DNA of 64,000 nucleotides from an uncultured Bdellovibrionales bacterium (GTDB lineage Bacteria > Patescibacteriota > Minisyncoccia > Moranbacterales > DUUL01): contig CAZDHE010000001.1 in the NCBI GenBank assembly GCA_964505305.1, positions 95,967-159,966 on the forward strand, given 5' to 3'. The translations under genes and the position numbers were made by a program. Under the pieces are notes generated by a model. That model ran no database searches, was not told the DNA's origin, and saw only the letters and a program-made list of their open reading frames with translations. Within the stretch, counting starts at the first letter, position 1. Every line of letters begins with the position of its first letter. This document shows positions 6,398-49,965 of the stretch, piece after piece.

Positions 6398-8362
6398 TTA
6401 TCTTACAAATCTTTGATAAATAACCACGTTTTCACTGGTGTAAATCATAGAGAAATTTTCCGATTTTTGGAATTGCTGCGTGTCATAACCGTTGCGGAGG
6501 ATAATATATTCAACCCCGGTTTCTTCATAGCAAGATTTTCCTATTTCCGAATCGGGAATTGAAATCATATCGCGAGTGCAGGTTTCCCTGTCTTTGACCG
6601 GGTCGTCATATCTTTTTAACAAAGCTCTGGAGAGAGGCTTCTCATAACCCCTCATTAGAAAAACTTTTACCCAAGAGTCTGCAGGTAGATGAACGTGATC
6701 TTTAAGGATAACCTCTTCGGAAGTGGTCTTTTCGGCTAAATACCTGGAGGCTCGTAAGGTTTCTGCATACATTTTGGCATTTTTTTTACTATCCTCCGGG
6801 TACCATTCGGAAATATCGGTCGAGCCGGAAATATAGCCGGTAGAAATAATTAAAGCAAAAAATAAAACAGAAGCCTTAGGGTCCAACTTTTTAATTATCG
6901 GTTTTAGCAGCAGAAAAAGACCAAACACGCATAAGGCCGCAGAGGGGTAGGTTAGATAATTGGCTATTCGACCGGAAGGGATGTCTACTTTTAAAACATC
7001 CGGAAAAGAAGTCATTAGAAAAATCACCCAAAACCAGGCCGGGATAACCAAGGCAAGTAACCCTATCTTCAGAGGGTCGCTTAATGTCACAGAATAATAT
7101 TTTTTTGCAAAATCTTTCAAAACTTGCCTTTTTGAAAAAATTAAAAACAAAATACCGCCTAAAAAGACAGTTCCTAGAAAGGAGTAAAAAACACGCCATG
7201 GTCCGGTGGATAAAAGTAAATCTCCAAAAATCACTCCCGTCCTAGTTGACTTGGATGGTTCGCCCACTGCGGTGCTTATGGCGGAGGAGTTGAGGTAAGA
7301 GGGGACTCTAATGAGAAAAACAAAAAGCAACAAGGCAATGCCAACTAACGATGATTTGAGGTTTATTATAGATTTCAGAGTTTTTGTTATTTTTTGTTTG
7401 GAAGTTTTTTTGAAAAAAAATAATAGAGCAAAATAAGCTATGGATAAGATTGTAAATCCGATAATAAAATATAAGAAAACAAAAGTGGATAGATGGTGGG
7501 TGTAAGCCATCGTTCCCACTATAAAAACACCTATGGCTGAAAGCAGAGTGTCTTTTTCTTGAATTGCTTTGGCGAATAAATAAATAGAAACGGGTATGAA
7601 AAGTCCTCCCAATATATTGCCGACCACTCCTCCATTTATGTATTTTCCCTGTGGGGAGGATATTGCGTAGAGAACTCCTATGGCAAGAAGACTTAAAAGA
7701 CCCAGGGCAAAAGAATCTCTGGGAGGCAAAAATGAGGAGGAAATTTGTTTAACCACGGCAAAAATGGCTATCAGAGAGAAAATGTTAATTAAAAACAGAA
7801 TGATATTGGGAAGAGAACTTATTAAACTTATGCCGGAAAGAATGGAAGTGGCGGCGAAAACAATGTGTTCTCCGATAATAACATCCGGAATTCCATACTG
7901 AGGAAGCTCGGCAAAGTCGACAATATGTTTGGCCCAATACATATGATGCCCTGAGTCGGTAGTGTGAGGGATAACCTTGGGAATCAAATAAATTAGTCTG
8001 GCAACTATTGAAAGAAGCAAGATGATGAAAAAAGCTAACCAGCCTTTATGTATAGATTTTCCCTCGGTTTTTTGGGGCTTGATAATTTTTCTTTTGCGAA
8101 AATGAACAAAAGCTGCTCCGGCTGTAAAAAATCCCAACCCCAGTGAAACGGAAATGAAATTAATGGCTATTCCGGCTTTGTCTACAATCATCATCAAAAA
8201 ATTGACAACGGCAATACTTAAAGTAAAAGCCAAAATAGCCTCGCCGGCGTAGCCGAACTTATTTTTCTCCGGATACAATACTTTTAAAGTAAAATACCCG
8301 GGAAGAAAGAATAAAAAAAATAAAGTAAGGCTGAGTTTAATTATATCAAGGGCAAATTCCAT
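6398..8362 (-). CDS. Polytopic membrane protein, GT-C-like (putative membrane glycosyltransferase/polymerase) with soluble C-terminal domain
   Basis: 654 aa with at least 12 hydrophobic helices in the first 480 aa, then a soluble roughly 170-aa tail. This is ArnT/PMT/O-antigen-polymerase-like topology. It lies inside the GT cluster. Confidence 0.4.
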   Translation of the reverse strand: MEFALDIIKLSLTLFFLFFLPGYFTLKVLYPEKNKFGYAGEAILAFTLSIAVVNFLMMIVDKAGIAINFISVSLGLGFFTAGAAFVHFRKRKIIKPQKTEGKSIHKGWLAFFIILLLSIVARLIYLIPKVIPHTTDSGHHMYWAKHIVDFAELPQYGIPDVIIGEHIVFAATSILSGISLISSLPNIILFLINIFSLIAIFAVVKQISSSFLPPRDSFALGLLSLLAIGVLYAISSPQGKYINGGVVGNILGGLFIPVSIYLFAKAIQEKDTLLSAIGVFIVGTMAYTHHLSTFVFLYFIIGFTILSIAYFALLFFFKKTSKQKITKTLKSIINLKSSLVGIALLLFVFLIRVPSYLNSSAISTAVGEPSKSTRTGVIFGDLLLSTGPWRVFYSFLGTVFLGGILFLIFSKRQVLKDFAKKYYSVTLSDPLKIGLLALVIPAWFWVIFLMTSFPDVLKVDIPSGRIANYLTYPSAALCVFGLFLLLKPIIKKLDPKASVLFFALIISTGYISGSTDISEWYPEDSKKNAKMYAETLRASRYLAEKTTSEEVILKDHVHLPADSWVKVFLMRGYEKPLSRALLKRYDDPVKDRETCTRDMISIPDSEIGKSCYEETGVEYIILRNGYDTQQFQKSENFSMIYTSENVVIYQRFVR

Positions 8363-8403
8363 ACTCTAATCCAATTTAAAAATAATGGCTTAAAATAAAC
8401 TAT

Positions 8404-9513
8404 CTAAGAATTCTTCATTTCATCATAGTAATTTTTAGCAATAACTTCCCAGCTATAATTGTTTTTTACGTATTCATAACTCTTTCTTCCTAAGCTTTTA
8501 AGGGAATTGGGATCGTTCTCCAGAACTTCTTTAATTTTTTCCACCCAAGCTTGAGGATTCTCCGGTTCGACTAAAAAGCCGTTTTTTCCTTCCTTGACAG
8601 CATCCTTTAAGCCTTCCAGGTCGGAAGCCAAGACAACTCTTTCGCACATTCCCGCTTCTATGGCATTGATACCAAAACCCTCCATAGAACCGATAACTTT
8701 TATGTTTGGAGAAACTACCAAGTCTACTGTATTAAGCAGTATTTTAACATCTTGCCAAGGAAGAGAGGGTAATAGCTTAACTCTATGTTCTAAGTTGTTT
8801 TCTATTATAGCTTTTTCGCTGCTCAGGAAGTCGTCTTTGTCTCCGGCTGTTCTTTCCGCTACTCGGTTTCCGGCTGCTATCATTACTACATTTTCCGGCA
8901 ACTCCGGCATAACGTTTTCTATAAACCAACTAGTCCCTTTGTGGGGTACGAATCTGGCTAATCTTAAGATAACTTTTTTTTCATTTAAAGTTTTGCCGAA
9001 TAATTGTTCCAGTTCTTTGCGGGAGTGTTTTTCCTTTAAATCTTTTTCGGATACTCCGTTGGGAATAAATTTGCAAAGGTCTGAGTCTATTCCGGCATTT
9101 AGCGCTTCTTCTATGGTAGCATTTCCCACCGCAAAAAGTTTATTCATTTTTTTTAAGGATTCAATGTTGATCTTTTGGTAAATTTTTGGCAAAACCCCTT
9201 CTTTTTGAGCGAAAGTTATGTCCAGCCCGTGAATTATGGAGAAAAATTTTTTCTTGGGATGGAAAAAGCTTAATACTCTTGCCAGCGGAGCCAATACTCC
9301 GCTTCCAACGAGGCAAGCGTCGTATTTAGTCATCAAGAAAAAAGATTTTAGAAAAGCCCAGGGAAGAAAAAGAGGCAAAAAATACTTTCCCTTTTTATTG
9401 GCAATTATTTTGGTGGAAGTAATTTCGGATAAATGACGAGCCAACTCGTAATTTTGTTTTTCAATTCCTCCAACAATAGGGGGATAAGTGTGGGAGATAA
9501 ATAGTATTTTCAT
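8404..9513 (-). CDS. Glycosyltransferase family 4
   Basis: Classic GT4 N-terminus MKILFISHTYPPIVGGIEKQNYELARHLSE and a C-terminal GT-B nucleotide-binding region. Confidence 0.8.
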   Translation of the reverse strand: MKILFISHTYPPIVGGIEKQNYELARHLSEITSTKIIANKKGKYFLPLFLPWAFLKSFFLMTKYDACLVGSGVLAPLARVLSFFHPKKKFFSIIHGLDITFAQKEGVLPKIYQKINIESLKKMNKLFAVGNATIEEALNAGIDSDLCKFIPNGVSEKDLKEKHSRKELEQLFGKTLNEKKVILRLARFVPHKGTSWFIENVMPELPENVVMIAAGNRVAERTAGDKDDFLSSEKAIIENNLEHRVKLLPSLPWQDVKILLNTVDLVVSPNIKVIGSMEGFGINAIEAGMCERVVLASDLEGLKDAVKEGKNGFLVEPENPQAWVEKIKEVLENDPNSLKSLGRKSYEYVKNNYSWEVIAKNYYDEMKNS

Positions 9514-21083: not shown

Positions 21084-21607
21084 AGGGATTGAGATTGTCA
21101 GGTGATTTATTGATTTTTTCAGAGTTTTTGGTTAACTTAATTGACATTTTTGTTTAAATTTGTTTAAATTCAGCAAAGGCATGAATGCCGGTTGTTTGCA
21201 TTTGGATTTTTGTTTCTGTGATTTTTTAAGACAGAATCCGCTGATCTCGTATAGCCGGGACAAGGATATAAAAATTTATATTCTTTAAGCGGTGCGAAGA
21301 TCAAAAATTTCCGGGTAAGGATTATTTCACTTTTTTTGCGGGATTAGAGGTTTAGAAGCCTGACCCCTTAAATTCTCGAAAGCCAGACTTCTAATTGTTT
21401 TGAGGTGGAAACGGATTTGAAAAATACGTTCTTGTTAAGCCGGCCACAGTAGTAAATGATTTTAGTGTTGGTCGATAAGCGGAGAAATAAGTTTCGGATT
21501 CTTTTACTAATTTGACAGGAAAAGGATCTTTAAAATTTTTAAACAATAAATTTATTAGAAGCTATTTTTTTCAAGTCAATCTCAGTTAATTATTATTTGC
21601 TGAATTG

Positions 21608-27490: not shown

Positions 27491-27880
27491 AATCTTATTC
27501 CTGAGGACTCGGGATTGCTCCATTGGGACAAACCCTCATAAATGACGAATCAATGACTAAATGAATAAAGACCAAATTAGGATTAAGAGATAAACAAAAG
27601 GAATTATAATTGAATTTTGAGAAAAACTTAATTAGTTGATAATTTAAATATTCGGGTTTTGCTTGCTTGGTGGCGGATAGGGATTTTATGATAAATACAA
27701 TTTAGTTAAGAATGACTGAGAAAAAACTTATCCATAAAATTATTTAAAGAGCTTTAATTTAAACCCGACAAACACTGATTGTCGGATTTAAATAAAAAAT
27801 TTTAGGACTATTTGACGGGCAGATTGAAGTTTCCAAATTTTCTTGAATAATTCATTTTTATAGAATGAGTGAGTTTAAAT

Positions 27881-38981: not shown

Positions 38982-39707
38982 ATGAAACAAAGATTTTGGG
39001 AAATAGATTTTTTAAGAGGAGCGGCTGTTGTGATGATGGTCATTTTTCACTTTGCTTGGTATCTTGATTTTTTTACCGGTCTGGAAATTTCTTTAAAAAG
39101 CTTTTTTTGGGAAATTTTTCGAATTATCACAGTCTCCGCATTTTTGTTTTTGGTTGGGATTTCTCTTTATATAAGCTCCCATAGTAAGGATGGGGTCTTT
39201 CTCAAATTTGCCAAGAGGGGTTTATACATTTTTTCGTTGGGGCTTGGGATTACTTTATTTACCAAGATATTTTTTCCGGACCATTACGTTTTCTTCGGCA
39301 TTTTGCATTTAATCGGAGTTTCCATTTTTTTAGCTTACTTCTTTTTGGATTTTAAATTTATAAACTTATTTTTCGGTTTTGCCTTTTTTGCTCTAGGAGG
39401 GTTGTTGAAAGCGCTCTCTCTTGATATTTCCTGGCTGTATTTCTTGGGGTTTTCTTCAAGCAATATATCTACTTTGGATTTTTATCCAATTATACCCTGG
39501 TTTGGAGTAGTTTTGTGGGGAATATTTGCCGCTAAAATTCTTTACAAAGACAGAGTCAGACAATTCAAACTGCTTGATTTGGGTGACAATTTCTTGATAA
39601 AAAAATTTTGCTTCTTGGGTAGAAATTCTTTGTTGATATATTTCCTTCACCATCCGGTGTTGACATTACTGGTTTACCTTATTCAGTTTTGGCTTAGATC
39701 GGGTTAA
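38982..39707 (+). CDS. DUF1624/acyltransferase-3-like integral membrane protein
   Basis: The N-terminal REIDFLRGAAVVMMVIFHF motif is typical of the family. There are about 8 TM helices. Confidence 0.5.
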   Translation: MKQRFWEIDFLRGAAVVMMVIFHFAWYLDFFTGLEISLKSFFWEIFRIITVSAFLFLVGISLYISSHSKDGVFLKFAKRGLYIFSLGLGITLFTKIFFPDHYVFFGILHLIGVSIFLAYFFLDFKFINLFFGFAFFALGGLLKALSLDISWLYFLGFSSSNISTLDFYPIIPWFGVVLWGIFAAKILYKDRVRQFKLLDLGDNFLIKKFCFLGRNSLLIYFLHHPVLTLLVYLIQFWLRSG

Positions 39708-39817
39708 GCAGATTTTCTTTTTACGGGGTTAAAAAAATGTTATGCTTATAGTGAGCTCTAAAAAAGGGATGGGTGAACTTCCAATAGGGAAAGGATATTA
39801 AAATAAAAATAATTTTT

Positions 39818-40228
39818 ATGAAAACTATCAGGGTTTTGATTTTGGAGGATGATTTGAAGGCTTGCCAGGCGATATTGAAGGTTCTGGAGGAGGTGGAGTT
39901 TGAGGCGATAAAAAAGGGGGTTGAACTTTCGGCGCTGGTTTTTCAGGAGCGTGTTTTTGTGGAGGAATTTGTCAACCAAAGGGAGTGGACCGGCGAAGAG
40001 ATTGTTTTTCTGGATCGAGAAGCGGACAAGGGTCAAGCCGGAAATTTTCACGATTTGGACTTTGAGAAATTTGACAAAGACAGAATCATCTCCATCTCTT
40101 CCGTTCCGGATTTCAACGAAGATGCCAGGAAACGGGGAATTAATCGGGTGGTTCAGAAAGATTTTACTAAGATGGATGAGTTTGGGGAAAAGATTGAAAG
40201 GGAGCTGCGGGTCATATTAGGTTTATAA
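39818..40228 (+). CDS. Atypical receiver(REC)-like single-domain protein
   Basis: VLILEDD, IVFLDRE (candidate phospho-Asp), ISISS and VVQKDF follow REC topology, but the domain is divergent. Confidence 0.5.
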   Translation: MKTIRVLILEDDLKACQAILKVLEEVEFEAIKKGVELSALVFQERVFVEEFVNQREWTGEEIVFLDREADKGQAGNFHDLDFEKFDKDRIISISSVPDFNEDARKRGINRVVQKDFTKMDEFGEKIERELRVILGL

Positions 40229-40297
40229 TACAATCCTTCAATAAGCGCTATTTAACAAAAAAGGGTGTGGCAATATAAGAAAATAAACAATAATTAA

Positions 40298-40600
40298 AAG
40301 GAAGCAATAAAAGAAAAAATAGAAAACATCAATGTTCCCAATGAAGATATGGGAAATTGGATTAACACTCTGTATGAAGCCGGTTTTTCTCAAGAGGAAA
40401 TTGACAAGGCGATGGTGATGCTCAATGATCAGCATGCTGAGCAAAAATAGGAAGTGTACGAGAAAGAAATTGAAAAATTGGCCGGGGATGAGTTCAAAAA
40501 AATTAGAAGGAAGATTAAATTGGAAACCGGGCGCTCGCTGAATTTGCAACAAAGAGAAACCTTGTGGGATTTGGTGAAAACCAAACCAAAACAAAAGAAT
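40298..40600 (+). pseudogene. Coding-like frame without a start codon, interrupted by an in-frame TAG (possible gene remnant or two tiny ORFs)
   Basis: The frame reads KEAIKEKIENINVPNEDMGNWINTLYEAGFSQEEIDKAMVMLNDQHAEQK*EVYEKEIEKLAGDEFKKIRRKIKLETGRSLNLQQRETLWDLVKTKPKQKN*. There is no ATG upstream. The only ORF the track calls here is a low-complexity antisense one. Confidence 0.25.
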
Positions 40601-40620
40601 TAAGAAGATTGTAAGTGTTT

Positions 40621-40759
40621 AAATAATATTATAACTCCCATATTCACATTTCAAAGGTCTCATTGATATTACCATGGTTCCATCTTAGCGTCTCAAAAAG
40701 TTATTGCACTTTTGCTCATTGAAGGGTATTATTTAAGCAATTGGCGCGAATATTTAATT
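40621..40759 (+). repeat. 139-bp direct repeat copy 1 (promoter plus leader of Cys-rich paralog 1)
   Basis: 138 of 139 positions are identical to 42443-42581 (one c/t difference). It ends 18 nt before the start codon. Confidence 0.85.
40704..40732 (+). promoter_or_regulatory. Sigma-70-type promoter: -35 TTGCAC, 17-bp spacer, -10 TATTAT
   Basis: Read directly: ttgcac-tttttgctcattgaaggg-tattat. It lies 46 nt upstream of the ATG at 40778. Confidence 0.5.
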
Positions 40760-40777
40760 TATAAATAAAATTAAAAT

Positions 40778-42448
40778 ATGGAAACTAAAAATGAAAAAAG
40801 ATGGAAAAAAATATTAAAATGGCCTATTACCGGAAAAGCTTATTGGTTTATAGGAGTAAAGATTGGATTTTTGCTCGTTTTCTTGTTTTTTCTTATTGCT
40901 GGTTTAGTAGTAGTTTTTCAATTATTAAATGGTAATGAGTTTCCTTCTGGTATGGTGGTTTTTCATCATCACAGGAACTATTTTCTGGAGCCAGTGATAA
41001 GAAATGTGTTTTGGGTTGATTCCACCTTTTCTATCGACAGGGGAAGAATTTGTAATTATCTTGTTTTTCCCAACGCAGTAGGTTTAACTTTTTCGTTTTT
41101 GTTTGTAATGATACCACTCACATTTATTGGATCATTACTGGATATTTTTAAAAGAAAAAAGTTTGTACCATTTGCATTAATTTCCTTCCTTGTTATATCT
41201 GCAGTTTCCTACTATTGCATTATCGAATTTTCCAACTTTCCATTTAGATGCAATCTCATGTTTGACAATGTACATAAGAGTAGTGGAATTTCTGCCAGAA
41301 GCAGCTGCTTAATCAGTGAGTTGAAATCAAGTGAAGAAAACAAAGACCCATCCTACTGTGAAAAAATGACAAATAGTTATAAAGTAGAATGCTATGATTT
41401 AATTTTAGAGAAAATGAATAAAAAGAATTGTCAAGATTTAAGCTTTTGTAATTCATTTCCAAAAGAATACAAGAATAGATTTACTACTTGGAAATATCAA
41501 ACTGATTGCTTGATAAGCTGCGCATTGATAAATAATGATAAATCAATATGCAAAAAACTTGATTCGGAAGAAGAAGTAGAGGGTTGCGAAAACAAAGTGG
41601 ATATTGACAACAAGGTAGAGCCCTATTTGAGCGAAACTGAAAAGCAAAGCGTCGATGAAGATGCATTGGAAAGATATAAAGAGCAATTTGAAACCTGTAT
41701 TTATGTGCATAGTGGTAAATTTGCAGATGAAACAACAGATAAAATAGAAAAAGGCTCAGAGGAATGCCTTCAAGAAAGAAGATTAACACACAATCGAAAT
41801 TGCTACATATTCTTTAAAGACAAGTGTTACTTAGATATAGTAGAAATAAATGGCAATGTTCTTAATTGCAAAAAAATATACAACTCAAATAAAAAGGATG
41901 AATGTTATTACAAAGCATCATTGAGTTTAAATGATTATAAATCTTGCGATAATATCAAAGATAAAAAAATGAGAATGCATTGTAAAGAAGAAATTAAAAA
42001 AGGCGAAAACGAAAAATGGAAAAATTACAAACATAAATCAGGAGTAAGCTTTAAATATCCTGCGAATTGGCATGTTAAGTTTGATCCTGTTGTTAACAGA
42101 ATAATAATAGAATCCGAAAAGAGAAACGGAATTGATTGGACAAGGCCTGGTATGTTGTGTGCTAGTAGAGTGCGCTTTGGAACCAAAGACAATGAGGGGT
42201 TGTCTTTAAATGAATATATTGAAAAATATGAAAAAGATGCAAAAAACATTAAGAGAGTTAAAGTTGACGGAAAAAATGCTATAAGGTTTATACCAAGGCC
42301 AGACTCCTCATACGAAATCTACATCTCACTGGAAGATTCAAAATTGTTTTATCTTGAGTCATCTTTAGAAAAAGGCCATGAAAAACATGAAGAATTGTTT
42401 AATAAAATGATGCAAAGCATTGAAATCAATGAATCACCATTGAAATAA
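40778..42448 (+). CDS. Cys-rich repeat membrane protein, paralog 1 (3 N-terminal TM helices, Cys-rich ectodomain, conserved C-terminal domain)
   Basis: 556 aa. The N-terminus is KWPITGKAYWFIGVKIG. The ectodomain holds about 30 Cys in repeated C-x-C/CY spacing. The C-terminus is SFKYPANWHV...FNKMMQSIEI, shared with paralog 2. Confidence 0.6.
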   Translation: METKNEKRWKKILKWPITGKAYWFIGVKIGFLLVFLFFLIAGLVVVFQLLNGNEFPSGMVVFHHHRNYFLEPVIRNVFWVDSTFSIDRGRICNYLVFPNAVGLTFSFLFVMIPLTFIGSLLDIFKRKKFVPFALISFLVISAVSYYCIIEFSNFPFRCNLMFDNVHKSSGISARSSCLISELKSSEENKDPSYCEKMTNSYKVECYDLILEKMNKKNCQDLSFCNSFPKEYKNRFTTWKYQTDCLISCALINNDKSICKKLDSEEEVEGCENKVDIDNKVEPYLSETEKQSVDEDALERYKEQFETCIYVHSGKFADETTDKIEKGSEECLQERRLTHNRNCYIFFKDKCYLDIVEINGNVLNCKKIYNSNKKDECYYKASLSLNDYKSCDNIKDKKMRMHCKEEIKKGENEKWKNYKHKSGVSFKYPANWHVKFDPVVNRIIIESEKRNGIDWTRPGMLCASRVRFGTKDNEGLSLNEYIEKYEKDAKNIKRVKVDGKNAIRFIPRPDSSYEIYISLEDSKLFYLESSLEKGHEKHEELFNKMMQSIEINESPLK

Positions 42449-42581
42449 TATTATAACTCCCATATTCACATTTCAAAGGTCTCATTGATATTACCATGGT
42501 TCCATCTTAGCGTCTCAAAAAGTTATTGCACTTTTGCTCATTGAAGGGTATTATTTAAGCAATTGGTGCGAATATTTAATT
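42443..42581 (+). repeat. 139-bp direct repeat copy 2 (promoter plus leader of Cys-rich paralog 2)
   Basis: See copy 1. It overlaps the last codons of paralog 1. Confidence 0.85.
42526..42554 (+). promoter_or_regulatory. Sigma-70-type promoter (duplicate of 40704-40732)
   Basis: An identical -35 TTGCAC, 17-bp spacer and -10 TATTAT precede the ATG at 42595. Confidence 0.5.
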
Positions 42582-42594
42582 AATAAACACATAA

Positions 42595-44073
42595 ATGAAA
42601 AACAAAAAAATAAATTTCTGGAGAAGTGTATGGAATTGGCTTTTAAAGGGAGGCTACTCTTGGCTTATTGGGGCAAAGATTGGATTGGTTTCTTTTTTTG
42701 TCATTTTACCTGTTTTCTTTTATTGCATTGCCTTTCCGATAGAAGTGCTTGTTACAAACACCCTGGGTTTTGATGTTTCAAATTGTCACATGTTTTTATG
42801 TGTCCCAACTATTTTAGGTGTATTTTTTTTACTTTTTTTTCTTATTCTTGCAGGAGCAATTGTAGGGTCTTTTTTTGATGTCATCAAAAAAGTAAATTTT
42901 TTGACTTCATCCTTTTTCATTTTAATTGGAGTTATTATGGTTTTATACTACTTTGTTGTTAATTTCTCGACACCTCCAAAAAAGTGCGAATTCCTCTTTG
43001 ATTTCTCGCCCGGCTTTCCTAGAAGTGAGTGTTTTTTGAATAATTTGAAGTATAAAGAAAAAAGCAATAGTCTTTCATATTGTGATAAAATCAAAATCAA
43101 ATCTAGTAAATGCGAAGATTTGATTATTAGTAACGTTAATGAGGAGCAATGTCAGGAACTAAATTTTTGTAATCAATTTTCCAACAAGGATGCGTGTTTA
43201 GAAAAATGCATGCTACATAAACAAGAGTTAAAAAATTGCATGATTCATCTTACAGAAAAATCAAGCGAAAAAGTAAAAAATAATATTTCTAAATGCTTAC
43301 ACTCCTCTGAAGTTGAGAAGTTTGAGAAGTGTTATGAACAGAGCAAAGACATTTGTTATTCAAAGTTGGCAAAACAAATATGGAAAATTGAAAATTGCAA
43401 TAAAATTGAAGCCTTAAACAAAAAAGAGGAATGCTACCACGATTTAGCCTATCAAAAAAAGGATATCAATATTTGCCATAAGATTAATAAATCTAGTCTG
43501 AAAAATTCTTGTTATTTATTAGTTGCCAGCAAGAAAAAAAACTCCAAACCTTGTCAAAATATTAACAAGGATCAAACGAAAAAAAAGTGCATAAAAATTG
43601 CGAATAGGGATGATATTGATGCTTGGCAAACTCATGATGTTTTTAAAAAGGGCAACTTAAATCTCTCCCTCGAATTGCCTTTGTTTTGGAAGTTGGTTGA
43701 TAACAAAACAAACAAGGAAATCATACCAAAGGAACAAGTAAATTGTGTTAGCCAAGAAGGTGCGGACGAGACATGTATAGACAAAATCAAGCTAAAATAT
43801 TATGAAAATAGAAACAATCTGAATTTGGAGACATTTTTCCGAAAGAAGTTTGGTTGGAAAAAAGGGACTAATTTCAAAAATGTTAACACAATAAACGTAA
43901 ATGATTATTATATGTCTAATGCTACTTTAATATATCCTCATGATGGAGAAGAGGATCCATCCGTGTGGATAGGCATAGCATCAGGTTATTATAAAATATC
44001 GGGAAACTATTTAGAGAGATACCAAGAAGAAATTTTTGATAAGATTGTTCAAAGCATCGAAATCAGTAAATAA
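42595..44073 (+). CDS. Cys-rich repeat membrane protein, paralog 2
   Basis: 492 aa. The N-terminus is WNWLLKGGYSWLIGAKIG and there are 3 TM helices. The ectodomain has about 30 Cys in about 22-aa repeats (ENCNKIEALNKKEECYHDLAYQKKDINICHKI...). The C-terminus is IVQSIEISK. Confidence 0.6.
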   Translation: MKNKKINFWRSVWNWLLKGGYSWLIGAKIGLVSFFVILPVFFYCIAFPIEVLVTNTLGFDVSNCHMFLCVPTILGVFFLLFFLILAGAIVGSFFDVIKKVNFLTSSFFILIGVIMVLYYFVVNFSTPPKKCEFLFDFSPGFPRSECFLNNLKYKEKSNSLSYCDKIKIKSSKCEDLIISNVNEEQCQELNFCNQFSNKDACLEKCMLHKQELKNCMIHLTEKSSEKVKNNISKCLHSSEVEKFEKCYEQSKDICYSKLAKQIWKIENCNKIEALNKKEECYHDLAYQKKDINICHKINKSSLKNSCYLLVASKKKNSKPCQNINKDQTKKKCIKIANRDDIDAWQTHDVFKKGNLNLSLELPLFWKLVDNKTNKEIIPKEQVNCVSQEGADETCIDKIKLKYYENRNNLNLETFFRKKFGWKKGTNFKNVNTINVNDYYMSNATLIYPHDGEEDPSVWIGIASGYYKISGNYLERYQEEIFDKIVQSIEISK

Positions 44074-44104
44074 CTAGAAAAATAACATTTTAATCAAATT
44101 TTAT

Positions 44105-44494
44105 ATGAACTCACTAATTTTTATTTTTGGGTTTGGCGTGGGGGTGGCTGTGGCTTGGTTTTTTATGCGGGAGGCTATGGAGAGGCACAGGGTGGAGGTG
44201 GATCGGATGGAAAGGGAGAAGCAAGAGCAGGAAGAGGTTGGGAGCGGGCTGGAAGGATTTAACGAGGAAGTCCAGAGGAGGATCGAGGGGCGCAAAGCTA
44301 AAATTATCCATGAGATTCAGCGGGCCGGCGCTGTGCAAAACCAGGAGGTGGCGGATATGCTGGATGTCTCTTCCCGCACTGCATTGCGGTATTTATCGGA
44401 GTTGGAGAAAGAGGGAAAAATTCGGCAAGTGGAAAAACTCGGCCGGAATGTTCGGTATGTGCTGAAAAAGGATGCTCTAAACCCGCCAAACTAG
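44105..44494 (+). CDS. Membrane-tethered winged-helix (DeoR-type HTH) DNA-binding protein
   Basis: The N-terminal TM helix is LIFIFGFGVGVAVAWFFM, followed by a charged coiled-coil-like segment. The C-terminal wHTH is IIHEIQRAGAVQNQEVADMLDVSSRTALRYLSELEKEGKIRQV...RNVRYVL. GC content is strongly elevated compared with the rest of the window. Confidence 0.55.
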   Translation: MNSLIFIFGFGVGVAVAWFFMREAMERHRVEVDRMEREKQEQEEVGSGLEGFNEEVQRRIEGRKAKIIHEIQRAGAVQNQEVADMLDVSSRTALRYLSELEKEGKIRQVEKLGRNVRYVLKKDALNPPN

Positions 44495-44514
44495 TGTTTG
44501 TCGGGTTTAATTTT
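44479..44514 (+). terminator. Palindromic terminator overlapping the stop codon of the wHTH gene
   Basis: aaacccgccaaac-tagt-gtttgtcgggttt is a 13-bp stem with one mismatch, followed by aatttt. The TAG stop lies in the loop. Confidence 0.5.
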
Positions 44515-44550
44515 AAGGCGGGAGGATTAAATATTTAAACTGGACAAACT

Positions 44551-46041
44551 ATGAAAATGCTAACTAAGTCAGATTTTCTGAAGTTTTGGCAGTGTCCGAA
44601 GGCGCTGTGGCTTAGTGTGTATAGAAAAGACTTAAAACCGGAGGTTAGCGAAAACCAACAGGCAATTTTTGAGGCCGGTTATGAAGTGGAGCAGTATGCT
44701 TACCGGTTGTTTCCCAAAGGCGAGAAGGTTTCCGAGGAGGAAAATAGTGATATTGGACACGAGACAAAGAAAACAAGGGAAATGATTGAAAACAAAAAAC
44801 CGGCTCTTTTCCAACCGGTCTTTTCTGTCGGCGGGTTGTTTTGCCGGTGTGATATTTTGGAGTATGACAAAGGCGGAGAGGCTTGGAATATCTATGAAGT
44901 GAAAAGCTCTACCAAGGCGCAAAAAATTCATTATTATGATTTGGCATTCCAGAAAATTTGCTTGGAAGAAGCGGGGTTGAGGGTCGGAGAGTTGAAGGTG
45001 ATTCATATCAATAAAAATTATGTTAAGTATGGCTCAATCGAGCCGGAGAAATTGCTTGAAACCGAGGACGTAACTGAAAAGGTTTTAAAATTGGAGGAGG
45101 AAACAAGAAAAATGATTCAGGAAGCGTTTGAAGTTCTTAACAAAAAGCAAGAACCGAAAATTCCTATTCTTCGCCAGTGCTGCAATCCTTATCCGTGCGA
45201 TTTTGTGGATTATTGTCTGGGAGAAGTTGAGGTTGACTCTATTTATTCCATCGGCAGCGCTTTGGGCGTTAGAAAATTAAAAGAATTGCTGAGCGGGGAG
45301 ATTTTCAAAGTTCAAGATATCCCGGATAAGATGCTTGATAAAAAGAAGCTTTGGCTGCATAAAGAGCTGGTTAAAAACGGCGGTGTTTATAAAGAAAAAG
45401 AAAATATCAAAAAGGAATTAAGCAAATTGGAATACCCGCTTTATTTCTTGGACTATGAAACTTCTGGGCCGGCTATTCCAATGTTTGACGGTTACAAGCC
45501 ATACCAGCGAATAATTTTCCAATATTCTTTGCATATTCAAAGGACGCCGGGCGGGGAATTGGAGCATCATGAATTTCTCTCAAAAGAAGCGAAAGACCCG
45601 GCTTGGGAGCTTTCCCGAAGCTTGCGGGAGAAGATTGGCGAGAAAGGTAGTTTTATTGTTTGGTATGCTCCTTTTGAAAAAGGATGCAATCAAGAAATAG
45701 GGGAGAGATATCCGGAATTCAAGGAGTTTTATCAAAATATCAATAATAGAATATATGATCTGATGGATGTTTTTAAAAATAGCTACTATGCTCATAAGGA
45801 ATTTCGAGCCAGCGCATCTTTGAAAAATGTTTTGCCGGTGATGGCGCCGGAACTTTCCTACAAGGACTTGGATATTCAAGAGGGCGGCACCGCTTCCAAT
45901 CGGTGGGCAAGAATGATACAATCAGACACAAGCGGAGAAGAAAAGGAGAGAATATATCAAGATCTTTTGAAATACTGCGAGCTGGACACCTTGGCAATGG
46001 TGAGGATTTTGGAGGAATTGAGAAAGGAAATTAAAGAGTAA
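44551..46041 (+). CDS. DUF2779-family protein: N-terminal Cas4/RecB-like Fe-S PD-(D/E)xK nuclease domain plus C-terminal DEDD-like (RNase H-fold) domain
   Basis: The N-terminus LTKSDFLKFWQCPKALWL carries the first Cys. D (CDILEYD) and E-V-K (NIYEVKSS) form the PD-(D/E)xK core. The Q/Y motif is HYYDLAFQ. The Cys cluster is CCNPYPCDFVDYC. The C-terminal half has YFLDYETSG...IIFQYSLHI, like DnaQ-type motif I. Confidence 0.65.
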   Translation: MKMLTKSDFLKFWQCPKALWLSVYRKDLKPEVSENQQAIFEAGYEVEQYAYRLFPKGEKVSEEENSDIGHETKKTREMIENKKPALFQPVFSVGGLFCRCDILEYDKGGEAWNIYEVKSSTKAQKIHYYDLAFQKICLEEAGLRVGELKVIHINKNYVKYGSIEPEKLLETEDVTEKVLKLEEETRKMIQEAFEVLNKKQEPKIPILRQCCNPYPCDFVDYCLGEVEVDSIYSIGSALGVRKLKELLSGEIFKVQDIPDKMLDKKKLWLHKELVKNGGVYKEKENIKKELSKLEYPLYFLDYETSGPAIPMFDGYKPYQRIIFQYSLHIQRTPGGELEHHEFLSKEAKDPAWELSRSLREKIGEKGSFIVWYAPFEKGCNQEIGERYPEFKEFYQNINNRIYDLMDVFKNSYYAHKEFRASASLKNVLPVMAPELSYKDLDIQEGGTASNRWARMIQSDTSGEEKERIYQDLLKYCELDTLAMVRILEELRKEIKE

Positions 46042-46115
46042 AATATGAAAAAACAAGGAAGGTGTCGAGATTTTAAAGCCGGGATGAATGTTTTTATCAT
46101 TAAACGCTTATTATT

Positions 46116-46967
46116 ATGAAAAAAGTTTTAATTGCTGGCGCTAAGGGGATGCTGGGAGGGGAGTTGGTTAAAGTTTTTCAAAGCGATGGTGCGAAGGTTT
46201 TGGCTTGGGATGTTGAGGAATTGGATATAACCAACAGAGAAGAAGTTTTAGAAAAAATTGAAGAAGCAAGTCCGGATATTGTTATCAACGCTGCCGCTTA
46301 TAATGCGGTGGATAAGGCTGAGGAGTCGGCGGAGGAATTTGAAAAAGCTCTTAAAATCAACGCCGAGGGACCCAAGAATTTAGCGATTGCCGCTCAAAAA
46401 ACCGGAGCAACTCTAATTCACTATGTTTCCGATTATGTTTTTAGTGGAAACAAGGAGGGGTATGTGGAAAATGACAAGCCTGATCCAATTTCAAATTATG
46501 GCAAAAGCAAGGCCGCGGGAGGGGCTGAGGTGGAAAAAATCGGCGGTAAGTATTATTTGATTAGGACTTCTAAAATTTTCGGGGATTCGGCTAATCATGA
46601 AGGGGCTAAAAAAAGTTTTTTTGAGATAATGATGAATTTGGCCGAGGAGAGAGATGAAATAAAAGTAATTGATTCAGAGAGGTCTTGCTTCACTTATGCG
46701 CCGGACTTGGCTGAAGCTACCAAAGATTTATTGAAGAAAAAATATGATTATGGGACTTATCACATTGTTAATGAAGGCGCGGTAACTTGGTATGAAGGAG
46801 TTTTGGAGTTGTTTAAAATTGCCGGAATTGAAAATATTAAGGTGAATCCCGTTTCTTCAGAGGAGTTTCCGCGTTTGGCTAAAAGGCCCGCCTCATCAGT
46901 CTTGATTAACACTAAGTTTTCGAAATTAAGACATTATCCGGAAGCGATAAGAGATTGGTTGAAATAG
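46116..46967 (+). CDS. rmlD: dTDP-4-dehydrorhamnose reductase
   Basis: The Rossmann N-terminus is MKKVLIAGAKGMLGGEL. AAYNAVDKAE and YVSDYVFSG are present, plus the catalytic YGKSK (YxxxK). Confidence 0.85.
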   Translation: MKKVLIAGAKGMLGGELVKVFQSDGAKVLAWDVEELDITNREEVLEKIEEASPDIVINAAAYNAVDKAEESAEEFEKALKINAEGPKNLAIAAQKTGATLIHYVSDYVFSGNKEGYVENDKPDPISNYGKSKAAGGAEVEKIGGKYYLIRTSKIFGDSANHEGAKKSFFEIMMNLAEERDEIKVIDSERSCFTYAPDLAEATKDLLKKKYDYGTYHIVNEGAVTWYEGVLELFKIAGIENIKVNPVSSEEFPRLAKRPASSVLINTKFSKLRHYPEAIRDWLK

Positions 46968-47029
46968 CAGTTCCAGCAAAATTTTAGCGCGAGTATTTTC
47001 GAGCGCTTTTTTACTTATTAATCCGCTTT

Positions 47030-47722
47030 ATGAAAAAAAAGATTTTACTTGGTTTTACTACCACTTCCGGATCCGATTATAAGAAAAAATTAGAGGAAAT
47101 TGAAGAAATGGGCATAAAAGAAGCGGCCTTTTTCTTAACCGGGTTAGATTTAAAAAGAAGAAAAGAGTTGTATGGATTACTCGAAAGATCTTCTCTGGAG
47201 GAAGCTCCCCATATTCATATGAGAAATGATATGGAGAAGTGGGAGGTTGATTTTCTCGAGAAAAGGTTTAATGTTCAAGCGTATAATATTCACGATAAAA
47301 ATTCCTTGCACCCCTTTGAAAACTGTAAGGATAAATTTTTGGAGTATGCGGAAAAGATATTTATTGAAAACACCGAAACCATTCCGGAAAAAGACGAATT
47401 GAAAGAATTAGGCGGTTTATGCATAGACTTTAGTCATTGGCAGGATAATTTTCTAAAGGGTGAAAAAGATCATTATCAAAAAATCTTGAATCTAATTAAA
47501 AAATTTCCTATCGGTTGTAGTCATATTTCTGCCGTTCAAAACAAGCTAAACGAATTCGGCTCTTTTGCTAAGCATTCTTTTAGAAACTTAAGAGAATTTG
47601 ATTATATGGTAAATTTTGTTAATTTTTTACCCGATTTAGTCAGCTTGGAATTAGAAAACTCTTTTCAAGAGCAAATGAAGGTCAAAAGATATCTGGAAAA
47701 AAACTTAGAAGGAAAAGTTTAA
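47030..47722 (+). CDS. Hypothetical protein (His/Cys-rich, possible metal-dependent TIM-barrel-like enzyme)
   Basis: 230 aa. There are no confident motifs. Conserved-looking HIHM, CIDFSHW and GCSHIS segments are present. Confidence 0.4.
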   Translation: MKKKILLGFTTTSGSDYKKKLEEIEEMGIKEAAFFLTGLDLKRRKELYGLLERSSLEEAPHIHMRNDMEKWEVDFLEKRFNVQAYNIHDKNSLHPFENCKDKFLEYAEKIFIENTETIPEKDELKELGGLCIDFSHWQDNFLKGEKDHYQKILNLIKKFPIGCSHISAVQNKLNEFGSFAKHSFRNLREFDYMVNFVNFLPDLVSLELENSFQEQMKVKRYLEKNLEGKV

Positions 47723-47806
47723 ATATTTGAGTTGTTTGATTAAAAATGCTATTATATAATCAAATCCCGGTTTTTCGGGTTGATTTTTAATAACTATAAA
47801 ACAATT

Positions 47807-48742
47807 ATGAAGATAAAAGAAATAATGGATTTGGCTGTTAAAACGGGTATGGAAAATGATTTTCGAAGCAAAGAGGAAATAAAAGAATTTTTACAAAGAA
47901 AAAAAGAGAAATTTGAAAGCTTGCCTAAGGAGGAGAAGGATTATTTTGATCGAGAAGAACTGGAAAACCCTTATATGGATTCGGCTGTTCATTATGATAA
48001 TGGCAAAGAAATCAAGAAGGCTTTGGCGGGGATTGATATAACTATGGGAGGACTAATGCTGGCAAAAGAATTGGGGTATGACTTGGTTATCAATCATCAT
48101 CCGGTCGGCAAAGCTTTGGCTCGATTGGATGATGTGATGGAATATCAAGTAGATGCTTTGGAAAAATTCGGAGTTCCGGTGAATATTGCCGAGAAAATGT
48201 TGCAAAAGAGAATTTCCGAAGTAGCTCGGGGAATAAATCCAGCCAATCACTATGCCGTAGTAGATGCGGCCAAGCTACTGGACATTAATTTGATCAATAT
48301 CCACACTCCGGCGGATAACTGTGTGGCAATGCTTGTTACTAAAAAAATAGAAAAAGCTCAATCTCGATATGTTAAAGACGTTATGAAGGTTTTAATGAGT
48401 ATTCCGGAATATCAAGAGGCTAAAAAAAGGTCCAACGGGCCTGTTTTGTTTACCGGCGTGGAAAATAATCGATGCGGGAAAGTGGTGGTTTCAGAGATGA
48501 CGGGTGGAACCGAAGGGTCTAAAGATATTTACCAAGCTATGGCTAATGCCGGAATAGGAACTATTGTGGGAATGCATCAAAGCGAGGAACACAGAAAAAG
48601 AGCCGAAGCAGCCAATTTGAATGTTATTATTGCCGGCCATATGTCCTCTGATTCCATCGGAATGAATGTTATTATGGACAAATTGGAAAAGAAAGGCTTG
48701 GAAATTACTCCTTTTTCCGGGCTGATTAGAAATAAAAAATAG
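47807..48742 (+). CDS. NIF3/YqfO family dinuclear-metal-centre protein
   Basis: The N-terminus is MKIKEIMDLA. GIDITMGGLMLAKELGYDLVINHHP matches the HHP metal motif, and INIHTPADNCVAMLV matches H-x-P-x-D-x4-N. The ATG at 47807 was chosen because the track's TTG start at 47780 lies inside a GC hairpin-T-run (cccggtttttcggg ttgattttt). Confidence 0.6.
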   Translation: MKIKEIMDLAVKTGMENDFRSKEEIKEFLQRKKEKFESLPKEEKDYFDREELENPYMDSAVHYDNGKEIKKALAGIDITMGGLMLAKELGYDLVINHHPVGKALARLDDVMEYQVDALEKFGVPVNIAEKMLQKRISEVARGINPANHYAVVDAAKLLDINLINIHTPADNCVAMLVTKKIEKAQSRYVKDVMKVLMSIPEYQEAKKRSNGPVLFTGVENNRCGKVVVSEMTGGTEGSKDIYQAMANAGIGTIVGMHQSEEHRKRAEAANLNVIIAGHMSSDSIGMNVIMDKLEKKGLEITPFSGLIRNKK

Positions 48743-48840
48743 CAGTTTGGGAAGGAAACTATTTTTGGCTTAAGTTGCAAAGCGAGATTGAGGAGTTGAG
48801 AAACAAGAAAATTGATTTAAAAAATCTTTAATATCCTTGT

Positions 48841-49965
48841 ATGCGAATTGCACTAGTTCATGATTATTTGGTTCAGTATGGCGGGGCGGAAAGGGTTTTG
48901 GAGAATTTCACTGAAACTTGGCCGGATGCTCCTATTTTTACTTTGGTTCATGACTCCGAAAAGGTGCATCAGAAATTTAAAGACAAAAAGATCCGGACTT
49001 CTTTTTTGCAAAAATCCAGAATAGTTAAAAATCATCACCGTTTGTTTCCGCCCGTTATGATGGCGGCGATGGAGCAGTTTCATTTTGATAAATATGACGT
49101 AGTGCTTTCGGATTCCTCCAGTTTTGCCAAAAACATTATTACTTCCCCGGAAACTTTGCACATTTCCTACTGCCACACTCCTATGCGGTATGCTTGGGAT
49201 GATTGCCAATATTACATCAAAGAATTCAGCTTTCCGGGTTTACTGAAAAAAACCGCCCCCTTTTTTATGAATTACATTAGAGTTTGGGATTATTTTTCTA
49301 CTAACGGGGTGGATGAATTTATCGCCAACTCCAATTTTGTTGCCGGCAGAATTAAAAAATATTATGGCCGGGACTCTACAGTAATCAATCCCCCTGTTGA
49401 TGTGGATAATTTTTACGTGTATAATGAGAATAAGGGCGGGTACTTACTGGCAGTCGGCAGGATGATGAAATATAAAAGAATGGATCTGGTTATAAAAGCT
49501 TGCAATCGCTTAAATCAACCCTTGAAAATTATCGGCAGAGGTCCGGAATATAAAAATTTGCAAAAAATTGCCGGTCCTTCGGTGGAATTTACCGGTAGAG
49601 TTTCTGATAAGCAATTGCGAGAACTTTATGCCAAGGCTAAAGCTTTTATTTTCCCCCAGGAGGAGGATTTCGGGATTGTGGCTATCGAGGCCTTAGCCAG
49701 CGGACGGCCAGTGGTGGCTTATGCTTCCGGAGATATTGTAGAAAACATAGAAGATGGCAAAACAGGAGTTTTATTCTGGAAGCAGAATGAAGAAGAATTA
49801 GCCAAGGCTATTAAAAAATTGGATAAAATTAAGTTTGACCCAAATTATATCAGAAGCACCAGCTTGCGTTTTAAGAAAGATATTTTCCAAAAAAAGATAA
49901 AAAAATTGGTGGAAAGCAAATATCAAGCTCATCAAAATAAATTGCTGAAAAAAGCGGTTGCTTGA
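48841..49965 (+). CDS. Glycosyltransferase family 4
   Basis: The N-terminus MRIALVHDYLVQYGGAERVLENF is present. The C-terminal GT-B motif is EEDFGIVAIEALASGRPVVA. Confidence 0.8.
   Translation: MRIALVHDYLVQYGGAERVLENFTETWPDAPIFTLVHDSEKVHQKFKDKKIRTSFLQKSRIVKNHHRLFPPVMMAAMEQFHFDKYDVVLSDSSSFAKNIITSPETLHISYCHTPMRYAWDDCQYYIKEFSFPGLLKKTAPFFMNYIRVWDYFSTNGVDEFIANSNFVAGRIKKYYGRDSTVINPPVDVDNFYVYNENKGGYLLAVGRMMKYKRMDLVIKACNRLNQPLKIIGRGPEYKNLQKIAGPSVEFTGRVSDKQLRELYAKAKAFIFPQEEDFGIVAIEALASGRPVVAYASGDIVENIEDGKTGVLFWKQNEEELAKAIKKLDKIKFDPNYIRSTSLRFKKDIFQKKIKKLVESKYQAHQNKLLKKAVA

Follow-up and report, generated by a model that had tools for sequence, protein, structure and literature searches.

Results

A winged-helix gene and a DUF2779 gene lie side by side

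The window analysed here is a 64,000-nucleotide (nt) stretch of contig CAZDHE010000001.1 (assembly GCA_964505305.1, forward strand, positions 95,967–159,966). Its subject is a pair of co-oriented neighbours separated by a 56-nt spacer: gene 1, encoding a small winged-helix protein with a predicted membrane anchor, and gene 2, encoding a DUF2779-family protein in which two predicted nuclease domains are fused. The locus is probably a resident stretch of a Patescibacteria (Moraniibacteriota-like) chromosome in which the two genes are adjacent but separately transcribed. A preliminary description, made from the letters alone, had given open reading frame (ORF) coordinates for both genes that were matched exactly, and had proposed that the pair is a horizontally acquired islet forming a defence or DNA-processing module. 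The features are as follows, in window coordinates.

44105–44494, plus strand: gene 1, ORF of 129 amino acids (aa), comprising a hydrophobic anchor at the N-terminus, then a long charged helix and, at the C-terminus, a winged helix-turn-helix (HTH); rich in G at third codon positions (G3-rich).
44105–44167, plus strand: gene 1 codons 1–21, predicted single membrane-anchor helix, MNSLIFIFGFGVGVAVAWFFM (Kyte–Doolittle hydropathy 1.88 over residues 1–19).
44291–44464, plus strand: gene 1 codons 63–120, winged HTH (H2, 79–86; recognition helix, 90–102; beta-hairpin wing, 106–120).
44479–44516, plus strand: intrinsic-terminator-like hairpin over the gene 1 stop codon, AAACCCGcCAAAC-tagt-GTTTGtCGGGTTT (hairpin 44479–44508), followed by a T-rich tail, AATTTTAA.
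44551–46041, plus strand: gene 2, ORF of 496 aa, predicted DUF2779-family dual nuclease.
44551–45225, plus strand: gene 2 residues 1–225, Cas4/RecB-like PD-(D/E)xK domain (D101, E116, K118, Q134; PADLOC Cas4 match at 4.5e-9 over residues 2–224).
45178–45216, plus strand: gene 2 cysteine cluster C210-(C211)-x4-C216-x5-C222, giving four invariant cysteines with C15 (44593–44595).
45226–45426, plus strand: gene 2 residues 226–292, all-helical linker (model helices 231–238, 240–248, 265–276 and 283–290) with a conserved ...LLDxGIxxIKDIP... motif.
45427–46041, plus strand: gene 2 residues 293–496, DUF2779 domain, a predicted RNase H-like DEDDy 3′–5′ exonuclease (ExoI, D301-x-E303; ExoII, D403; ExoIII, Y475-x3-D479).

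ORFs of at least 61 aa lie across gene 1 in other frames, four in number (44101–44295, minus; 44114–44338, minus; 44127–44465, plus; 44304–44489, minus). The preliminary description was right that such spurious overlapping ORFs exist, although it counted three, and they follow from the bias of gene 1 to G-ending codons described below. The annotated frame is nevertheless the real coding gene, since it has a Pfam winged-HTH match and since its differences from an 84%-identical orthologue in a sister genome (L002; numbers of this form denote loci in other genomes) are distributed 14/11/42 over the three codon positions, a pattern of purifying selection.

Gene 2 encodes a full-length DUF2779 protein with two predicted active sites

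Gene 2 is an ordinary member of the widespread, already-described DUF2779 family. The Pfam profile (PF11074) matched residues 298–423 at 6e-40 (136.9 bits against a cutoff of 23.3) over all 126 profile positions, and an NCBI protein 100% identical to the gene 2 product carries the name ‘DUF2779 domain-containing protein’. Homologues numbered 3,935; the best 120 of these were 47–100% identical and nearly all full length, and the named ones came almost all from Patescibacteria.

Among 26 aligned homologues, on which residue invariance was judged, Q14, C15, D101, E116, K118, Q134, C210, C216, C222, D301, E303, D403, Y475 and D479 were invariant (26/26). The motifs listed in the preliminary description are literally present (Q14-C15-P-K, D101 with E116-V-K118, Q134, C210-C211-x4-C216-x5-C222 and F-L-D301-Y-E303-T), as are D403 and Y475-x3-D479, and most of them are invariant. 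However, C211 is variable, and where the Q/Y motif has its tyrosine most homologues have F or L; because C211 is not conserved, the cluster motif of the family is C15 plus C-x5-C-x5-C. By analogy with Cas4 and AddB, C15, C210, C216 and C222 are predicted to be iron–sulphur (Fe–S) ligands. A DNA-binding role like that of a helix-hairpin-helix motif is possible for the linker.

The AlphaFold2 model of gene 2, made from the alignment of these 26 homologues (predicted local distance difference test score, pLDDT, 91.8; predicted template modelling score, pTM, 0.86), comprises an alpha/beta N-terminal domain, the helical linker and an alpha/beta C-terminal domain. Compared with the PDB by Foldseek, its top matches were the Cas4 structures 8d3l (E 1.2e-4), 4r5q and 4ic1 (probability 1.00), then MGME1. 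Profiles, invariant residues and fold matches thus agree in upholding the preliminary view of a DUF2779 protein that fuses a Cas4-like Fe–S PD-(D/E)xK domain to a DEDD-type domain. The annotated start, MKM... at 44551, is two codons ahead of the family consensus start MLTKSDF, for which reason the second ATG, at 44557, is likely to be the true start.

This two-headed architecture was already known, having been described in two earlier studies. DUF2779 was placed as family F.17 in the 3′–5′ exonuclease clade of the RNase H-like superfamily and noted to co-occur with DUF83 (Cas4) (Majorek 2014, PMC3985635), and a 2026 mSphere paper (PMC13621843), in which the family is stated to be uncharacterised, recognised the quasi-essential JCVI-syn3.0 protein MMSYN1_0389 as a DUF2779 protein with a Cas4-like nuclease fused to a DEDD(y) nuclease. 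In Mycoplasma bovis, the DUF2779 gene Mbov_0804 is listed in a table of transposon-disrupted genes from a study of survival in cell culture.

Gene 2 resembles several nuclease families and differs from each

Within the DUF2779 family (MMSYN1_0389, Mbov_0804, F.17), gene 2 is a full-length member sharing the layout of a Cas4-like followed by a DEDD-like domain, and in it, as described for MMSYN1_0389, the D...ExK triad, the four acidic DEDD residues and the tyrosine are all kept. Two differences separate it from the mycoplasma protein. DUF2779 proteins of the Candidate Phyla Radiation (CPR) are shorter, at about 490 aa, whereas the DEDD-like region of the mycoplasma protein starts only near residue 460; and the CPR proteins keep four cysteine ligands where MMSYN1_0389 keeps two. 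The model for the mollicute subfamily UU173 (NF045869) matched gene 2 below its cutoff (77 against 225 bits) and over the C-terminal part alone.

The same order of an N-terminal Cas4-like Fe–S nuclease and a C-terminal RNase H-like exonuclease, in about 500 aa, is found in the TM0106 family (TIGR03491; COG2251/PF13482 RNase_H_2). Gene 2 aligns end to end with a TM0106-family protein from locus L005, at 22% identity, but scores 26.8 bits with the TM0106 model (cutoff 97.45) against 250.5 bits for that 503-aa protein, and its C-x5-C-x5-C spacing contrasts with the canonical C-x2-C-x5-C of TM0106 proteins, as seen in the L005 protein.

With Cas4 itself (PF01930, TIGR00372), gene 2 shares the PD-(D/E)xK fold, the catalytic triad and the arrangement of one N-terminal and three C-terminal cysteines, and Cas4 structures are its best fold matches. 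Unlike Cas4, it is fused to a DEDDy exonuclease domain, and its cysteines (C15 ... C210-x5-C216-x5-C222) lack the canonical C...C-x2-C-x5-C spacing. The Pfam Cas_Cas4 profile fell below threshold (19.5 against 22.7 bits), TIGR00372 gave no match, and the PADLOC Cas4 models that did match carry no curated cutoff. No CRISPR array was found in the 64-kb window, and no cas gene was present among the annotated neighbours or recurred near the 80 DUF2779 loci surveyed below. Solo-Cas4 genes occur outside CRISPR loci too (PMC5704561); unlike the Cas4 of mobile genetic elements (MGE-Cas4), the gene 2 family is nearly absent from phages.

The C-terminal half carries the ExoI D-x-E, ExoII D and ExoIII (H/Y)-x3-4-D motifs and the RNase H-like fold of the DEDD (DnaQ-like) exonucleases, from which exonuclease activity is predicted. 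AddAB and RecBCD combine a RecB-family nuclease and, in AddB, an Fe–S cluster with two nuclease activities on DNA ends, and serve both repair and the degradation of foreign linear DNA. The likeness of gene 2 to these complexes would be one of functional analogy alone: it is a single 496-aa polypeptide with no helicase or motor domain, and its second nuclease is of DEDD rather than RecB type. To our knowledge, no Chi-type regulation of DUF2779 has been described. PADLOC-DB 2.0.0 holds no DUF2779 system model, and gene 2 matched only its generic Cas4 models.

Gene 1 encodes a generic winged helix with a predicted membrane anchor

Gene 1 is best described as a lineage-specific, membrane-tethered, generic winged-helix protein. 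G9, G13 and W18 of the predicted anchor helix are invariant among orthologues, and by the positive-inside rule the Arg/Glu-rich sequence that follows the anchor predicts that the remainder of the protein is cytoplasmic. In the AlphaFold2 model a single long helix (residues 4–74) runs into the winged helix, with pLDDT >90 for residues 51–120. Pfam HTH_24 (1.1e-8) and HTH_DeoR (1.1e-6) matched, the Pfam match spanning residues 63–108. The membrane-tethered winged-helix reading of the preliminary description therefore holds, resting on the hydrophobic N-terminal helix, the Pfam matches and the modelled fold.

The terms ‘DeoR-type’ and ‘sensor’, also applied to gene 1 there, are over-interpretations, because next to nothing of the protein lies outside the cytoplasm and an effector domain is lacking. 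HTH_DeoR scored 28.6 bits (cutoff 21), with HTH_24 scoring higher; full-length DeoR-type NCBIfam models all fell far below their cutoffs, no DeoR effector domain being found within the 129 aa. By Foldseek the winged helix matched MarR, ArsR, PapI and AspA at a root-mean-square deviation (rmsd) of 1–2 Å over about 60 residues. Residues 63–120 superpose at 1–2 Å rmsd on small winged-helix proteins (PapI/FaeA, AspA, MarR/ArsR) and on the Csa3/CasR HTH, and match the FaeA, HTH_24, HTH_DeoR and Csa3 HTH profiles. Gene 1 departs from these proteins in carrying a membrane anchor at its N-terminus and a charged helix some 50 residues long, and in lacking a C-terminal domain of effector, CARF or DeoR type. 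PADLOC-DB 2.0.0 gave domain-level matches to the HTH regions of CasR, Csa3, WYL and SoFic, the partner genes of those systems being absent. The most likely role of gene 1 is that of a local DNA-binding regulator or membrane tether.

Protein searches detected seven close relatives of gene 1, all Moranbacteria-like. More distant relatives (about 100 aa, a transmembrane helix plus a winged helix) are accompanied by a paralogue in which a Pro/Ala/Glu-rich N-terminus replaces the transmembrane helix; the two are adjacent in L092 (3383–4367) and L096 (1977–2917) and about 1.1 kb apart in L097 (2242–2538 and 3653–4246). Distant relatives in L096 and L100 adjoin DNA methyltransferase and restriction-like genes.

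A conserved hairpin closes the winged-helix gene

The hairpin over the gene 1 stop codon folds better than shuffled sequences (minimum free energy z-score −2.1), and its consensus comprises 13 pairs, two of which show compensatory changes in L005. An equivalent hairpin and T-run lie 3′ of every HTH orthologue examined, whatever gene comes next, and transcription of the HTH gene therefore probably stops at the gene's own 3′ end. A scan with promoter and terminator consensus sequences returned counts at chance level; it overlooked this hairpin because of a mismatch in the hairpin and the shortness of the T-run.

A near-identical palindromic hairpin (AAACCCGnCAAAC...GTTTGnCGGGTTT) occurs twice in the window, at 27761–27789 and 44479–44508, in intergenic or 3′-end sites. 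Relatives of this hairpin are found after HTH genes elsewhere, in other genomes, and it may represent either a terminator motif typical of the lineage or a small repeat element.

Neighbouring genes

Two tandem genes upstream of gene 1 (40778–42448 and 42595–44073) encode divergent membrane-protein paralogues, 24% identical over their full length, which are Cys-rich and have an N-terminal membrane region and a weak PsbP-like C-terminal domain. Over the C-terminal 150 aa, identity to the product of a syntenic 751-aa gene in L002 (5652–7907) is 45%. Neither flanking surface-protein gene had a PADLOC match. Further upstream lies an HGSNAT gene (38982–39707). Downstream of gene 2 follow RmlD, a 230-aa ORF, a NIF3-like gene, a GT4 glycosyltransferase, PGK and more metabolic genes. 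The 230-aa ORF (47030–47722), between RmlD and the NIF3-like gene, is AT-rich (GC 0.32) and had no Pfam or NCBIfam match; over the annotated stretch 38982–49965, it and 39818–40228 gave no family match.

Only gene 1 is atypical in base composition

Composition was judged against the 54 genes of the window. The window as a whole has a GC content of 36.7% (standard deviation 2.75% over 1-kb intervals), reaching its maximum of 44.0% in the interval starting at 44001. Gene 1 stands apart in GC (0.515, z +3.3), in GC at third codon positions (GC3; 0.608, z +3.8) and in synonymous-codon log-likelihood (−1.20, z −3.2), with a G3 of 0.457 against a background of 0.207 and a preference for the G-ending codons GAG, GTG, CGG and AGG. 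Gene 2, by contrast, is in the normal range throughout (GC 0.408, z +0.7; GC3 0.457, z +1.3; codon log-likelihood −0.996, z −0.2). The abrupt GC rise reported earlier for the pair thus holds for gene 1 only: gene 1 is a real outlier and gene 2 is compositionally normal. Moreover, the step is exaggerated because the two upstream surface-protein genes, at GC 0.309 and 0.307, are among the most AT-rich of the window.

The outlying composition of gene 1, by all three measures, and the fact that the sharpest GC step of the window falls at its 5′ end would suit the proposal that the pair arrived recently by horizontal transfer as a GC-shifted islet. The proposal is nevertheless very improbable and largely refuted. 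Not only is the composition of gene 2 native, but the sister genome L002 (Moraniibacteriota; the same genome as L009) has the order of the window, with surface protein, HTH and DUF2779 genes in succession; its upstream surface-protein gene is homologous and likewise AT-rich, its DUF2779 protein is 79% identical to gene 2, and its HTH gene (8001–8390) is also G3-rich (GC3 0.592). Since order, AT-rich upstream gene and G3-rich HTH are common to both, any acquisition event predates the split between the window and L002. In L005 and L008, whose HTH orthologues are about as similar at the protein level, the GC3 of these genes is ordinary (0.35 and 0.39), from which it follows that the G3 bias arose within the lineage of the window and L002 and not by way of a GC-rich donor. 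The close homologues of gene 1 detected by protein search, besides, all belong to the same clade.

A third genome extends this comparison. Contigs L109 and L008 of GCA_046497225.1 overlap end to end (98.7% over 156 nt), and the junction running from the HTH 3′ end through the spacer to the DUF2779 5′ end is duplicated in them (93–99% identity) around an insertion of about 1.3 kb. Copies of the junction lie at the following positions.

L109, 1543–1776
L109, 2956–3109
L008, 1–280

Either an element was inserted and its target region duplicated, or the pattern is an artefact of assembly; as the junction flanks the insertion on either side, the ancestral order was HGSNAT–HTH–DUF2779, as in the window. 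The insertion encodes a 197-aa protein with a PEP_exosort domain.

A search for island boundaries found neither an integrase nor, beyond chance level, short repeats; the nearest and only tRNA of the window is at 21607. With one gene of two atypical, no tRNA, integrase or flanking repeat at its edges, and the unit present in L002 and ancestrally in GCA_046497225.1, the locus lacks the marks of a horizontal island, and the claim that a two-gene islet had been horizontally acquired falls.

Many GGAGG-like motifs occur in gene 1. Its bias to G-ending codons is common to the window (44105–44494) and L002 (8001–8390) and is not seen in the L005 and L008 orthologues. A structured RNA beneath gene 1 was considered and rejected: Rfam gave nothing credible in 43–47 kb, the sense RNA folds worse than shuffled sequences (z +1.9), and antisense folding was unremarkable. 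Expression-linked codon bias was likewise set aside, the other GC3-elevated genes (MazG-like, UDG, ParA-like, WecG) being not obviously highly expressed.

The winged-helix gene accompanies the nuclease in few relatives

The survey of gene neighbourhoods covered 80 DUF2779 loci drawn from reference genomes across many phyla. A homologue of gene 1 stood beside DUF2779 at 1/80, that locus being the sister genome L002. There was no strongly recurrent neighbour: the largest cluster obtained by BLAST clustering comprised at most 5/80 loci, and no Pfam family occurred in more than 4/66 upstream or 2/77 downstream neighbours (position ±1) of DUF2779. Four relatives at 56–58% identity to gene 2 (L112, L114–L116) have no HTH gene. 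The HTH-plus-nuclease module of the preliminary description does not survive this survey, with the HTH missing from 79/80 loci and from these relatives, and with a terminator hairpin separating the two genes in the window.

In three of the four relatives an HD_4 gene (RelA/SpoT-type hydrolase, 192 aa) lies about 22 nt upstream of DUF2779, the HD_4–DUF2779 blocks being placed as follows.

L114, 4977–7482
L115, 382–2464
L116, 3255–5751

An unannotated 134-aa gene precedes HD_4 in L114 and L116, and in L112 the HD_4 gene lies downstream of DUF2779, beyond McrBC. The defence genes next to the block vary, with McrBC, HsdR and GmrSD all represented.

Within the clade of the window the picture is different. 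In L005–L007 (in L005, the stretch 6399–8761), the place of DUF2779 is taken by a TM0106-family nuclease with the same Cas4 plus RNase H-like architecture as gene 2, and an 80%-identical HTH orthologue follows it at a distance of 90 nt on the downstream side. L008 carries a second HTH paralogue as well, three genes downstream from its DUF2779 gene. Upstream of the TM0106 nuclease in L005–L007 are a type I HsdR gene, DUF5655 and an FtsK-gamma protein. A small DUF7672 gene (80–81 aa), absent from the window, occurs within a few genes of HTH and nuclease in L002 (11098–11343), L005 (8519–8761) and L008 (1763–2005).

These contexts could indicate that genes 1 and 2 are a true functional module, in which the tethered winged helix, either by binding DNA at the membrane or by regulating the nuclease gene, would recruit or control the nuclease, for example to act on DNA that enters the cell. 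The HTH gene is directly upstream of and co-oriented with DUF2779 in the window, in L002 and, ancestrally, in GCA_046497225.1; the paralogue of L008, the TM0106 nuclease of like architecture and the recurrence of DUF7672 in three of these contexts point the same way. We nevertheless judge such a module unlikely. Among the 80 loci the HTH gene keeps company with DUF2779 in the sister genome alone, and the 56–58% identical relatives have no HTH gene and carry HD_4 (upstream in L114–L116, downstream in L112). Moreover, the HTH orthologues in L110 and L111 and 20 more distant metagenome relatives showed no DUF2779 or TM0106 nuclease in their available flanks, and the conserved terminator closes the HTH gene regardless of its neighbour. 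The positive cases all come from one narrow clade, so that shared ancestry could explain them; adjacency of HTH and DUF2779 is mainly a matter of shared ancestry and synteny among a few close relatives.

Defence genes border a minority of DUF2779 loci

None of the genes annotated around the pair (38982–49965, including the two without a family match) is a recognised defence gene. Across the survey, at least 19/80 loci had a HerA, GmrSD, AAA_15, AAA_13, SF1-helicase, AAA+, HsdR or Fic gene within two genes of DUF2779, comprising 12/44 CPR loci and 7/36 loci of other or unclassified lineages. The large neighbours at the 80 loci were mostly HerA, GmrSD, AAA_15, AAA_13, SF1-helicase or AAA+ proteins.

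Motor proteins directly adjoin DUF2779 in different phyla, with HerA/DUF87 at position −1 in L016, L030 and L040, and an SF1 helicase of 1,100–1,600 aa at −1 in L018, L020 and L046; the plasmid loci L117 and L118 likewise have a large motor protein next to DUF2779. This suggests a recurrent pairing of a motor with the DUF2779 nuclease across phyla. Of the two plasmid copies of DUF2779, one has QatABCD, an SF1 helicase and a dGTPase as neighbours; the second is flanked by an AAA+ gene at one end and by WYL and PLD genes at the opposite end. DUF2779 is rare in plasmid records (33/72,556). A phage origin for the family was rejected, with six partial matches in 50,697 phage records.

DUF2779 could on this evidence be a dedicated anti-phage or anti-plasmid nuclease, working by itself or serving various ATPases or helicases as their effector, in which case the window copy would be a defence gene outside an island. 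Close relatives border McrBC, HsdR, GmrSD, MazE and Fic/RhuM (RhuM/Fic in L002), both plasmid copies described above sit in defence islands, and the 19/80 loci add to these. Nearby genes also matched more defence models: 143 genes at ±1 matched 340 PADLOC models (E≤1e-10), against 135 for 143 genes at ±4 to ±6, a difference of about 2.5-fold that is a crude measure, and the far genes themselves include restriction-modification methyltransferases and AbiEii. A positional gradient of seeded defence genes (15/110 at ±1, 5/97 at ±2, 3/319 at ±3 or further) was not relied on, being biased, unlike the PADLOC comparison, because the seeds were picked from the ±2 neighbours.

Such a dedicated role is the less probable one. 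About three quarters of the loci have no listed defence neighbour, no annotated gene around the window pair is a defence gene, and PADLOC, lacking a DUF2779 model, recognised the protein through generic Cas4 models alone. Identity within the family is maintained at about 50% across CPR classes, DUF2779 is nearly absent from phages, and its mycoplasma member is quasi-essential in a minimal cell grown without phage. For a housekeeping role speak the native composition of gene 2, conservation across the CPR, quasi-essential MMSYN1_0389, Mbov_0804, near-absence from phages and rarity on plasmids.

Discussion

We favour, with moderate confidence, the reading of gene 2 as a resident DUF2779 dual nuclease for helicase-independent processing of DNA ends, standing beside a small lineage-specific tethered winged-helix protein that probably has a separate transcript. 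Gene 2 would be a cytoplasmic, two-headed nuclease. Its Cas4-like head, held by a four-cysteine Fe–S site, would attack 5′ single-stranded ends, and its DEDDy head would trim 3′ ends; because the heads would act on 5′ and 3′ ends, a single polypeptide with no helicase of its own could make frayed or linear DNA ends blunt or else degrade them. As a compact enzyme of DNA-end surveillance and processing, it could, like RecBCD and AddAB, serve both in repair or recombination and in the destruction of incoming linear DNA, a dual role that would reconcile the quasi-essentiality of the family with its island associations. In some lineages DUF2779 would team up with separately encoded motors (HerA, SF1 helicases, AAA+ ATPases). 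This mechanism is drawn from the known activities of Cas4/RecB-type and DEDD-type domains.

Several points weigh against this interpretation. The polarities of the two nucleases, their substrate (DNA or RNA) and Fe–S binding are all inferred for DUF2779. The C-terminal fold matches are weak (DinG exonuclease domain 9kqh, ERI2 7n8v and RNase HI, at probability 0.95–0.97 and E 0.03–0.09), and searches of PDB sequences with gene 2, both as a single sequence and as a 26-sequence profile, found no relative, so that the link from gene 2 to solved Cas4 structures rests on fold comparison. About a quarter of DUF2779 loci, including the window's own clade and the 56–58% identical relatives, border defence genes, which suits a nuclease dedicated to defence no less than one used in housekeeping. 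The neighbour-joining tree intermixes CPR and non-CPR DUF2779 sequences, which means that transfer does occur, and scatters the loci with defence neighbours over its branches; such mixing between phyla would also suit a defence nuclease. The HTH orthologue beside a TM0106 nuclease hints at a functional link between HTH and nuclease, where the reading favoured here sees coincidence or synteny. Finally, the strong G3 bias of gene 1 is not accounted for by this reading.

A bolder interpretation would have the HTH protein specialised as the partner of dual nucleases of the Cas4 plus RNase H-like type, staying beside the nuclease, within its clade, even when the nuclease family is swapped (DUF2779 or TM0106), and would make DUF2779 and TM0106 proteins unrecognised defence-island effectors that, with interchangeable adaptors or motors (HTH tether, HerA, SF1 helicases, AAA+ ATPases), destroy incoming DNA at the membrane. 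We regard this as improbable, more so than either a nuclease dedicated to defence or a module limited to genes 1 and 2.

For a resident end-processing nuclease, the window itself adds little that is new, given that the protein was already annotated and its two-nuclease architecture already published. DUF2779 is, however, a large and widely conserved family without an experimentally determined function, one member of which is quasi-essential in JCVI-syn3.0, and its CPR versions are suited to a first biochemistry because they are compact and retain all four Fe–S cysteines and both active sites. The by-products of the analysis are that DUF2779 has no conserved neighbourhood over 80 loci, that a sizeable minority of these loci border defence or motor genes, and that DUF2779 and TM0106 nucleases are swapped beside the same HTH gene. 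If the borders with defence and motor genes and the swap hold true in a census, DUF2779 would become a candidate for a RecBCD-like role in both repair and defence in reduced genomes.

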